DNA from: a virus
Lineage: Duplodnaviria > Heunggongvirae > Uroviricota > Caudoviricetes
Strand: one strand, 5' to 3'
IMG/VR virus record: IMGVR_UViG_2695420596_000008
Span: 1-10,352 of that record
DNA length: 10,352 nt
In this document: positions 7,462-8,031 of the stretch, piece by piece
How positions within the stretch are numbered: the first letter of the stretch is position 1
Layout of the letters: each line of letters starts with the position of its first letter
Made by a program: the position numbers and the translations under genes
The notes under the pieces: model-generated
Databases searched by the model: none
Told to the model about the DNA's origin: nothing
The model's input: the letters and a program-made list of their open reading frames with translations, nothing else

Positions 7462-7482
7462 TTCTGTCATCTAACTTAAGTA

Positions 7483-7611
7483 TCAAGCCGCTTTTTGTGA
7501 ATGATTGATGTGAGCTTCAAAGTCGCGGCGTAGATTTTGAACGCGCTCTACACATCCGCGCATTTCAGCCAAAAGCTTACTAACGGCAGTATAGTCAAAC
7601 GCTTTAGTCAT
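7483..7611 (-). CDS. Small hypothetical protein (42 aa), second gene of the rex-position cassette
   Basis: Hand translation MTKAFDYTAVSKLLAEMRGCVERVQNLRRDFEAHINHSQKAA*; SD GAGGGG 7 nt upstream of ATG; 15-nt gap after the 120-aa ORF; followed 20 bp later by the t_imm hairpin. Confidence 0.45.
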   Translation of the reverse strand: MTKAFDYTAVSKLLAEMRGCVERVQNLRRDFEAHINHSQKAA

Positions 7612-7626
7612 TTTTTTTCCCCTCGT

Positions 7627-7989
7627 TTAAATGTAAGGCTCAACATCAAGGGCTGCTATTGCTGCGCACAATGCGTCAGGATCGTCAGCATCGATGGCTT
7701 GAGCCAGGTCATTAGCCAGTATAAGTAACTTATCGATGACAGCGATTTCGCTGGTCTTATCTACACGAAAGTATGGGAGCAGAGCATTACATACGTCTCT
7801 GAATGTCCGTAATTCTGCGACAACGTTCGAAAAGGTAGGATCTTTCTTACGAAGATCCACCAATGGCGCTACTTTAGCTGTTTTCAGCATTGCACTAATC
7901 TCGCCAATCATTGTTCCATGCAGACGATTAAATTCATCAACAGCTCGGTCATGCAAGCTCTTGTTGATTGGCAATACGTTTTGGGTCAC
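7627..7989 (-). CDS. Hypothetical protein (120 aa, GTG start), first gene of the rex-position cassette between repressor and t_imm
   Basis: ORF with strong SD AAGGAG 8 nt upstream of GTG; predicted soluble and largely helical, acidic C-terminus (DADDPDALCAAIAALDVEPYI); no similarity to lambda RexA/RexB as recalled. Confidence 0.55.
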   Translation of the reverse strand: MTQNVLPINKSLHDRAVDEFNRLHGTMIGEISAMLKTAKVAPLVDLRKKDPTFSNVVAELRTFRDVCNALLPYFRVDKTSEIAVIDKLLILANDLAQAIDADDPDALCAAIAALDVEPYI

Positions 7990-7995
7990 TAACTA

Positions 7996-8031
7996 TACTC
8001 CTTATATAGGTGTTCGCCAACAGATTTTCAA
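7996..8031 (-). promoter_or_regulatory. Candidate sigma70 promoter for the rex-position cassette: -35 TTGAAA (plus 8026-8031), 17 bp, -10 TATATA (plus 8003-8008)
   Basis: Near-consensus hexamers with ideal spacing inside a 270-bp AT-rich gap between repressor stop and the 120-aa ORF; caveat: the predicted start site falls at or after the SD. Confidence 0.35.

Follow-up and report, generated by a model that had tools for sequence, protein, structure and literature searches.

A two-gene cassette located next to the repressor gene of a lambdoid prophage was analysed by sequence comparison, which suggests that the cassette is, somewhat probably, a toxin-antitoxin-like anti-phage (abortive infection) module, in which gene A would encode a stable effector, gene B would encode its short-lived antidote, and B-like genes of other phages would act as decoys. 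The cassette lies in a stretch of 10,352 nucleotides (positions 1 to 10,352 of the IMG/VR virus record IMGVR_UViG_2695420596_000008, Caudoviricetes), hereafter called the window, which was identified as the early-left and immunity region of a lambdoid prophage. A and B occupy the minus strand, with a LexA-like cI repressor on one side and pL/N on the other. An initial annotation, made from the sequence of the window, had pointed to the pair as a candidate exclusion, abortive-infection or toxin-antitoxin-like module. This reading is backed by three signals from comparison, independent of one another: 1) the strict pairing of A with B, 2) an invariant Ala-Ala-COOH end on the B protein, and 3) orphan B homologues in other phages that do not have this tag. 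Directly supported by the comparisons are these three signals, the reality of the two genes and the boundaries of the module.

Genes A and B and their strict pairing

The two small genes that the initial annotation had placed at 7627-7989 (A) and 7483-7611 (B) were both recovered as open reading frames (ORFs) on the minus strand, A with the described GTG start and strong Shine-Dalgarno sequence (AAGGAG, 7998-8003). Comparison of A with its counterpart at locus L003 counted 13/7/45 substitutions at the first, second and third codon positions, with 45 synonymous and 11 non-synonymous codon changes. Because the substitutions follow the codon phase of the minus strand and fall mostly at third positions, A and B are, by this pattern, real genes under purifying selection, and the antisense ORFs at 7537-7728 and 7736-8059 (plus strand) were rejected.

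Related loci were gathered from genomes, viral contigs and metagenomes. An ORF of 38-49 amino acids corresponding to B was found 12-49 nt downstream of A in 20 out of 20 non-identical A loci, an arrangement of adjacent, co-directional small genes that always occur together, as in type II toxin-antitoxin pairs. When 1.84 billion representative proteins were searched exhaustively with a profile, only 36 representative clusters of the A family came up, nearly all of which are single-domain proteins of 104-182 amino acids or shorter fragments. The B family is equally small, and both families occur in the same taxa, namely Enterobacterales, Vibrio, Glaesserella, Gilliamella and Idiomarina.

In E. 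coli, the 561-bp cassette was present in 89 of 5,426 complete genomes, always intact, with at least 99% identity and at most three copies per genome. Many complete E. coli genomes, those of O26:H11, O103 and O111 strains among them, contain the 861-bp region around A and B with 100% identity, and both genes are annotated there as "hypothetical protein". Many Gammaproteobacteria other than E. coli also carry the cassette.

The Ala-Ala end of B

In an alignment of 32 B cluster representatives, drawn from 5.8 billion proteins, the terminal Ala-Ala-COOH formed the sole invariant columns; L072, a B member outside this set, has Val-Ala at its end. Within the ssrA degron, Ala-Ala-COOH matters most for recognition by ClpXP, and related cellular degrons share this ending (PMC7652416). 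All 32 representatives thus carry the sequence hallmark of an ssrA-like C-terminal degron. Because an invariant end coincides with the key ClpXP determinant, we infer that B is constitutively unstable.

The B protein is mildly basic (isoelectric point 9.1; grand average of hydropathy -0.50) and not hydrophobic, and it was predicted to form a single amphipathic helix over residues 7-41 (predicted local distance difference test score, pLDDT, 90), with its last residues modelled at lower confidence (pLDDT 64). B matched phrog_12503 (2e-26), a PHROG family of unknown function, and displayed no match to the helix-turn-helix (HTH), ribbon-helix-helix or AbrB domains of DNA-binding antitoxins.

Orphan B-like genes in other phages

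At least seven other phage lineages, of which six belong to taxa known as virulent, encode B-core homologues that lack the tag and for which no A could be detected. The Ala-Ala end is thus present in 32/32 A-linked B representatives and in 0/7 orphan lineages, a contrast to which no p-value is attached, the lineages being not fully independent. The orphan genes are located in regions of small unannotated genes. In a tblastn search of 50,697 phage records with two A queries, only the temperate Proteus phage Pm34 was matched, and a search of the complete IME260 genome with the A profile found nothing. The RB69 member (L092, NC_004928.1 116785-116874) also occurs in about 75 other T4-like records, in which it is mostly unannotated.

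Phages whose closest relatives are the mEp021 group carry, in at least nine metagenomic contigs, a 37-amino-acid variant of B (P0018) with 95% amino acid identity to B of the window and 90% nucleotide identity over 155 nt. In this copy codon 38 is TAA, not TCA, and the final SQKAA is thereby lost. Homology to the window extends only over 7634-7480, from the stop codon of A, through the A-B spacer, to just past the stop codon of B, and the A profile detected no A in those mEp021-like contigs, of up to 11 kb, to which it was applied. The remnant downstream of the new stop has decayed faster than the ORF, and two alleles differ inside the ORF only by synonymous changes; the copy carries 2 synonymous and 2 non-synonymous changes, too few for an informative dN/dS.

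These observations also bear on the main alternative, in which the B-core helix would itself be a phage effector that binds a host factor (for take-over or anti-defence), which would account for its presence alone in many virulent phages, A of the prophage would be a sponge or a sensor for incoming B-like peptides and would defend by sequestering them or by being triggered, and the unstable B of the prophage would keep A folded or silenced. The far wider spread of the B core than of A in phages, its conservation alone in seven lineages among small unannotated genes, and the resemblance of A to a binding protein more than to an enzyme are in keeping with such a role. However, this alternative gives no simple account of Ala-Ala in every A-linked B and its absence from every orphan, and it leaves unexplained that mEp021-like phages recently captured the prophage B and that only its tail was removed. 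It also requires two roles for B, and under it the A-null/B-intact allele described below must be a decaying remnant, unless B is given a role of its own. It is considered unlikely, and the two further alternatives that are weighed with the distribution of the cassette are less likely still.

Directly next to the orphan B genes of two unrelated phages lie small ORFs whose very acidic products have EENWDV or EENWGV at the end (L076 2853-2987 in a mEp021-like contig and L093 1653-1775, Hena1_00970, in Hena1); these ORFs may encode a second small counter-defence or partner protein.

Proposed mechanism and natural alleles

In the toxin-antidote model, which accounts most simply for all of the features, A would be a stable 13-kDa helical-bundle effector, which the 42-residue helix of B would bind and neutralise. 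ClpXP or another AAA+ protease would continuously remove B via its Ala-Ala-COOH degron, and B would have to be constantly resynthesised. When an infecting phage shuts off host expression, B would be lost and free A would block something that the phage or the cell needs. Invading phages would counter with a degron-less B-like helix of their own, a stable decoy antidote. The unit would be expressed in the lysogen: read-through from the repressor promoter would allow A and B to be translated together, and the promoters of the cassette would yield mostly B and keep it in excess, which might also spare the lytic growth of the prophage itself once it is induced. Binding of A by B, instability of B, toxicity of A, the trigger and the defence phenotype are all proposed here on the strength of comparative patterns.

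Natural alleles, in small numbers, appear consistent with this model. An A-null/B-intact allele (L097/L098) was found in an NCBI E. coli assembly. In a both-null allele (L035, 2813-3014), a deletion between two GCTGAA repeats cut A after codon 36 and removed the start of B. The reverse combination, an intact A beside a null B, was not seen in 20 distinct loci and 101 E. coli copies. Two frameshifted A alleles (L095 and L096) were set aside, being from single metagenome runs and possibly assembly errors.

Several points weigh against the toxin-antidote model. B has no DNA-binding domain, and hence the usual autoregulation of type II systems is not evident; none of the 101 E. coli copies is disrupted, and the decay that is common in toxin-antitoxin loci is not apparent; the argument from allele asymmetry and that from synonymous changes are based on very few events; the transcription starts of the cassette promoters are sequence predictions only; and the orphan B genes could serve a purpose that has nothing to do with A.

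A mobile unit in the repressor-adjacent slot

The cassette, consisting of a spacer, a promoter block, A, B and a terminator, spans approximately 8233-7430. Homology blocks shared with loci on other phage backbones begin at 8233, 8212 or 8010 and run to 7430-7433, just past the terminator (to 7344 in L016). The start lies at 8233 in L016, in which the repressor is a near-lambda cI, and at 8212-8245 in L003, L018 and L021; the junction with other repressor types is about 25 nt past the cI stop codon. Because these boundaries enclose the spacer, promoter, A, B and terminator, the cassette is, as judged from the homology, an autonomous accessory unit that moves as one piece among prophages with unrelated repressors. 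A megablast search of phage records with the cassette DNA matched only the terminator and cI edges.

The initial annotation had assigned the pair to the slot that holds rexA and rexB in lambda. This position was borne out, both in the window, where the cassette lies between the S24 repressor and OL/pL/N, and in L016, where it follows the near-lambda cI in the place of rexAB. Across the related loci, the pair lies beside different repressors. It is located downstream of many unrelated S24 repressors, including gp25 of the temperate Proteus phage Pm34, and between the C repressor and int in P2-like prophages. In a Vibrio parahaemolyticus prophage, it lies amid structural genes with its own promoter and terminator.

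This distribution was used to weigh the other two alternatives. In the first, the cassette would serve addiction or lysogeny maintenance and not defence, using the same labile-antidote chemistry to kill cells that lose the prophage or to tune induction or the choice between lysis and lysogeny. As would be expected for such a role, lambdoid and P2-like prophages mostly have the pair in their repressor operon, and post-segregational killing as a rule relies on short-lived antitoxins (PMC7167474). Yet the pair accompanies unrelated repressors (S24 cI, P2 C, an Arc-like neighbour), in Vibrio lies away from any, and is thus not tied to one circuit, and addiction gives no reason for other phages, T4-like and T5-like phages included, to carry a tag-less B. 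This alternative appears quite improbable.

In the second, the cassette would be ordinary lysogenic-conversion cargo that alters host physiology outside phage-phage conflict, and the B-like helices of phages would reflect incidental common ancestry. Its architecture of an autonomous accessory unit of unknown function and its enrichment in animal isolates and in Shiga-toxin-producing E. coli (O26/O103/O111) would suit such cargo, but the perfect correlation of the degron with A, the precedents for the slot and the repeated acquisition of B by lytic phages point to conflict, and conversion cargo is regarded as very improbable. Defence by a toxin-antidote pair is the reading retained in what follows.

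Some E. coli genomes, such as NZ_CP148466.1, carry two or three identical copies of the cassette in different lambdoid prophages, and the 2,162-bp "plasmid" record NZ_CP148434.1 is largely made of the cassette. In a P2-like prophage (L067, 3335-3775), a 146-amino-acid protein with a signal-peptide-like N-terminus is encoded between the C repressor and A-B in one lysogenic operon. In a Serratia locus (L004, 2973-3431), a 152-amino-acid protein with an Arc/MetJ-like N-terminus is encoded upstream of the cassette and replaces the S24 repressor.

Predicted promoters, possible read-through and terminator

The AT-rich gap of about 270 bp with a TTGAAA-17-TATATA promoter reported by the initial annotation was found as 7990-8257, 268 bp with a GC content down to 0.27. 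The promoter-like pair in this gap, P-a, has 9/12 consensus matches, and its -10 element is without the usual final T, which is why it was not listed by the promoter scan. In an alignment of 11 diverged loci (A3), the columns of its -35 and -10 elements either do not vary or reach a conservation of at least 90%. A second pair, P-b, which overlaps P-a, ends 2 nt before the GTG of A, and TTGA.. and TATAGT/TATAAT are kept in all lambdoid loci. Conservation at the DNA level covers about 45 nt upstream of A and the first A codons, ATTGAAAA..TTGA..CCTATATAAGGAGTATAGTTAGTGACCCAAAA, in loci between which the A proteins share only 42-50% identity. Since translation signals cannot explain the conserved -35 hexamers, and chance is no explanation either, P-a and P-b were accepted, from their conservation, as putative promoters. 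An operator-like repeat in the gap (8139-8154 versus 8980-8995, 81% identity) was set aside as too weak.

The Shine-Dalgarno sequence of A overlaps the -10 element of P-a and lies upstream of that of P-b, from which transcription would start at or just past the start codon of A. Because both -10 elements overlap or follow the AAGGAG of A, while B has a GAGGGG of its own, transcripts from the cassette promoters would be expected to translate B much better than A, and A would need read-through from the repressor promoter. Such read-through, which the initial annotation had proposed, is plausible because a terminator scan of the minus strand between cI and A found none. That annotation had also suggested for the cassette a promoter of its own for both genes; the conserved promoter block agrees with this, but its output is probably biased toward B, since the ribosome-binding site of A is bypassed.

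The lambda-like t_imm hairpin noted downstream of the pair is indeed present, with a centroid fold of -16 kcal/mol, but it belongs to the cassette and not to the phage backbone, as homology ends just past it. With about 95% identity, the segment 7400-7462, which contains the terminator, recurs in H-19B, BP-4795 and many Stx1a/Stx2a phages with other cargo in the slot, and it may be a shared recombination junction.

Predicted properties of A and searches for relatives

The initial annotation had described a soluble, helical A protein and a basic, helical B protein, and had seen no likeness to RexA, RexB or known families. Structure prediction and profile searches agreed with this description. 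A is not hydrophobic and was predicted by AlphaFold to be a helical bundle (pLDDT 82.5) with helices at residues 5-40, 53-73, 79-101 and 104-115. The protein as a whole is acidic (isoelectric point 4.9), and the "acidic tail" attributed to it is the near-invariant C-terminal motif AIAALDxKPYI-COOH. This motif and the segment GEISxMLxxAKLxP...NPSF are the best-conserved parts of A, whose homologues nearly always stop right after PYI or PYV. Few polar residues are conserved in the family (K39, D115 and mostly E30). A HEPN (Rx4-6H) or Fic/Doc type of toxin was rejected, as no such residues are conserved. Because A has no catalytic signature, a stoichiometric action is expected, and our best guess is that A would bind its target, probably via the conserved loop at residues 38-53 and the KPYI-COOH tail.

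A matched phrog_13858 (5e-73), which, like the family of B, is of unknown function. Neither A nor B was matched in scans of Pfam and NCBIfam (E up to 1-10), no defence-system model of PADLOC-DB v2 matched either protein (E up to 10), and a Pfam scan of 31 A homologues gave scattered noise only. No match was found among PDB sequences or solved folds; profile searches of the PDB with the alignments of A and of B brought up nothing but designed helical or coiled-coil proteins, which were discarded. Homology to a known toxin or antitoxin superfamily was not found in these searches, and a literature search found no paper on A or B. Papers on the svsR small RNA and on HepS were unrelated to A and B.

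Features of the window and flanking genes

The gene order of the window is int, xis, exo, bet, gam, a DUF2528 gene, a 149-amino-acid membrane ORF, N, OL/pL, the B/A pair, the cI-type repressor, cro, cII and O. Coordinates of the cassette and its surroundings are listed together with the orphan B genes in the Table.

Table. Features of the cassette and its flanks in the window, and orphan B-core homologues in other phages
Feature	Position or locus	Strand	Remarks
Gene A	7627-7989	minus	120 amino acids, GTG start; presumed stable effector ("toxin")
Shine-Dalgarno of A	7998-8003	minus	AAGGAG, 8 nt upstream of GTG; GGAG invariant in alignment A3
Gene B	7483-7611	minus	42 amino acids, ATG start; core FDYxxVSKLLAEMxxCVERVxxL; presumed short-lived antidote
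Shine-Dalgarno of B	7619-7624	minus	GAGGGG, within the 15-nt A-B spacer
Codons for Ala41-Ala42 of B	7486-7491	minus	Candidate ClpXP-type C-terminal degron
AT-rich spacer	8032-8233	minus	GC 0.27-0.33; left part of the mobile module
Promoter-like pair P-a	8003-8031	minus	-35 TTGAAA (8031-8026), 17-nt spacer, -10 TATATA (8008-8003)
Promoter-like pair P-b	7992-8020	minus	-35 TTGGCG (8020-8015), 17-nt spacer, -10 TATAGT (7997-7992); from promoter scan
Intrinsic terminator ("t_imm" hairpin)	7436-7464	minus	9-bp G+C-rich stem (7441-7464), 6-nt loop, then UUUUCUUU
cI-type repressor (HTH + Peptidase_S24)	8258-8962	minus	Pfam PF00717 3.8e-16, phrog_4; its promoter can read into the cassette
Operator repeats by repressor	8981-9046
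OL operators	7215-7257		Right border of the slot with pL, nutL and N
pL-like promoter	7239-7211	minus
nutL boxB	7115-7137		boxB-like inverted pair; second at 9344-9366
N antiterminator gene	6748-7092	minus	Pfam N_peptide 2.3e-32
Orphan B, Klebsiella T5-like Sugarlandvirus (59 records)	IME260 gp057		36.5 bits versus B profile; phrog_12503 1.4e-9
Orphan B, RB69 and other T4-like phages (most of 83 records)	30-amino-acid ORF between uvsY.-1 and uvsY.-2		MTNYKEVFRLLAEMEACLKRVQEMRFKMGL; 36.4 bits, E = 1.2e-6
Orphan B, Erwinia phage Hena1 (Vequintavirinae)	Hena1_00960		46.7 bits versus B profile
Orphan B, Proteus phage YP1	BDEGMOIK_00063		43.6 bits versus B profile
Orphan B, Klebsiella Jedunavirus SBP	gp48		36.8 bits versus B profile
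Orphan B, Yersinia jumbo phage fHe-Yen9-02	082c		30.0 bits versus B profile

Just downstream of N, the 149-amino-acid ORF with predicted membrane segments (6240-6689, minus strand; phrog_3054, function unknown) is replaced in L003 and L016 by versions of about 49% identity, and its site may be another variable accessory slot. A 200-amino-acid hydrophobic ORF (1720-2322, plus strand) lies between xis and exo, on the strand opposite to the neighbouring early-left genes; it was matched by neither PADLOC nor NCBIfam and could be an autonomous accessory insertion. The O gene contains tandem repeats (10100-10250) that encode repeated PQNEGGSPKMRDI and correspond to the origin iterons.

An Rfam search of the whole window (E<=1) identified the cIII thermoregulator (Lambda_thermo, RF01804) at 5558-5616 on the minus strand, at full length and with 88.5 bits. 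The only other match, to a snoRNA (snR191) at the O-gene repeats, was spurious, being driven by the repeats and below its own gathering score, and no non-coding RNA was found in the 7990-8257 gap.

Significance

The slot between cI and N of lambdoid prophages is a known hotspot of lysogen-expressed defences, such as Rex and BstA, and most of its cargo is unstudied. A and B add to it two protein families without characterised relatives as a candidate toxin-antidote defence, for which the comparative pattern names, at the level of residues, an effector, an inhibitor, an instability determinant and candidate counter-defence genes. In its broadest form, the proposal is that A/B is an unrecognised broad-range abortive-infection system with a non-enzymatic helical-bundle toxin bearing an invariant KPYI-COOH, whose antidote helix was captured repeatedly, and each time without its tag, by phages of at least seven lineages, among them T4-like, T5-like, Vequintavirinae, Jedunavirus and jumbo phages. 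We advance this broader form tentatively, as a serious possibility that we would stop short of calling probable.

If the proposal is true, A would represent a new type of toxin, and the mostly unannotated 30-amino-acid ORF of RB69-type phages would be a dedicated anti-defence gene. A function would also be provided for a small ORF of Klebsiella T5-like phages that are under development for therapy, which would help in predicting the host range of such phages on lysogens. Furthermore, the cI-N slot would hold a second classic system comparable to Rex, with a tractable mechanism.

Comparison with known systems

Both rexAB of lambda and bstA of BTP1 occupy the repressor-adjacent slot of their prophages, and an excess of RexB suppresses Rex (PMC8585504). 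Like A/B, lambda rexA-rexB lies between cI and pL/N, consists of two genes that run in the direction of the repressor gene and has the immunity terminator at its end. The cassette is thus in the Rex-type position, and its co-transcription with the repressor would follow only from the missing terminator. In lambda, pLIT transcribes rexB alone, and a separate promoter of the cassette likewise appears to favour the distal gene, a bias that would fit the suppression of Rex by excess RexB. Unlike RexA (279 amino acids) and RexB (a multi-pass membrane protein), A and B are small, soluble and helical and have no similarity to them in sequence or fold; B in particular is not a membrane protein of the RexB kind. 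Rex is thought to act by membrane depolarisation, whereas A/B would be controlled by proteolysis of B.

BstA-aba of the Salmonella prophage BTP1 is, like A/B, located directly downstream of the prophage repressor. BstA is highly expressed in lysogens and provides abortive-infection defence with a built-in self-immunity element (PMC8585504). It differs from A/B in being a single large DNA-binding protein that works with the aba DNA element, and no homology relates the two systems.

Like phage morons, the cassette is inserted between backbone genes, has sharp limits of homology and brings a terminator and a conserved promoter block of its own; predicted -35/-10 pairs and a terminator flank its cargo. 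"Moron" denotes an architecture and not a function, and the cassette carries two co-dependent genes.

Among toxin-antitoxin systems, Phd-Doc of P1 offers a likeness to the proposed lability of B, since the antitoxin Phd is degraded by ClpXP (PMC7167474). Phd-Doc differs in its reversed gene order, in the Fic motif of Doc and in DNA binding by Phd, neither of which features was found in A/B, and no Pfam match links the pairs. The Doc toxin has about 126 amino acids and is all-helical.

The closest parallel to the proposed conflict is provided by rnlAB and lsoAB, in which, as is proposed for A/B, the toxin gene comes first and the labile antitoxin second, and which are borne by a prophage or a plasmid. 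These systems defend against T-even phages upon shut-off of host expression, when a phage protein can replace the decaying antitoxin; in T4 this protein is Dmd, a phage-encoded antitoxin against RnlA and LsoA (PMC7167474). The toxins RnlA and LsoA are large RNases of the HEPN type; A, by contrast, has 120 amino acids and no catalytic motif. The orphan B-like ORFs of RB69, T5-like phages and others would match the role of Dmd, with the difference that Dmd is unrelated in sequence to RnlB, whereas the orphan phage ORFs are true homologues of B minus the degron.

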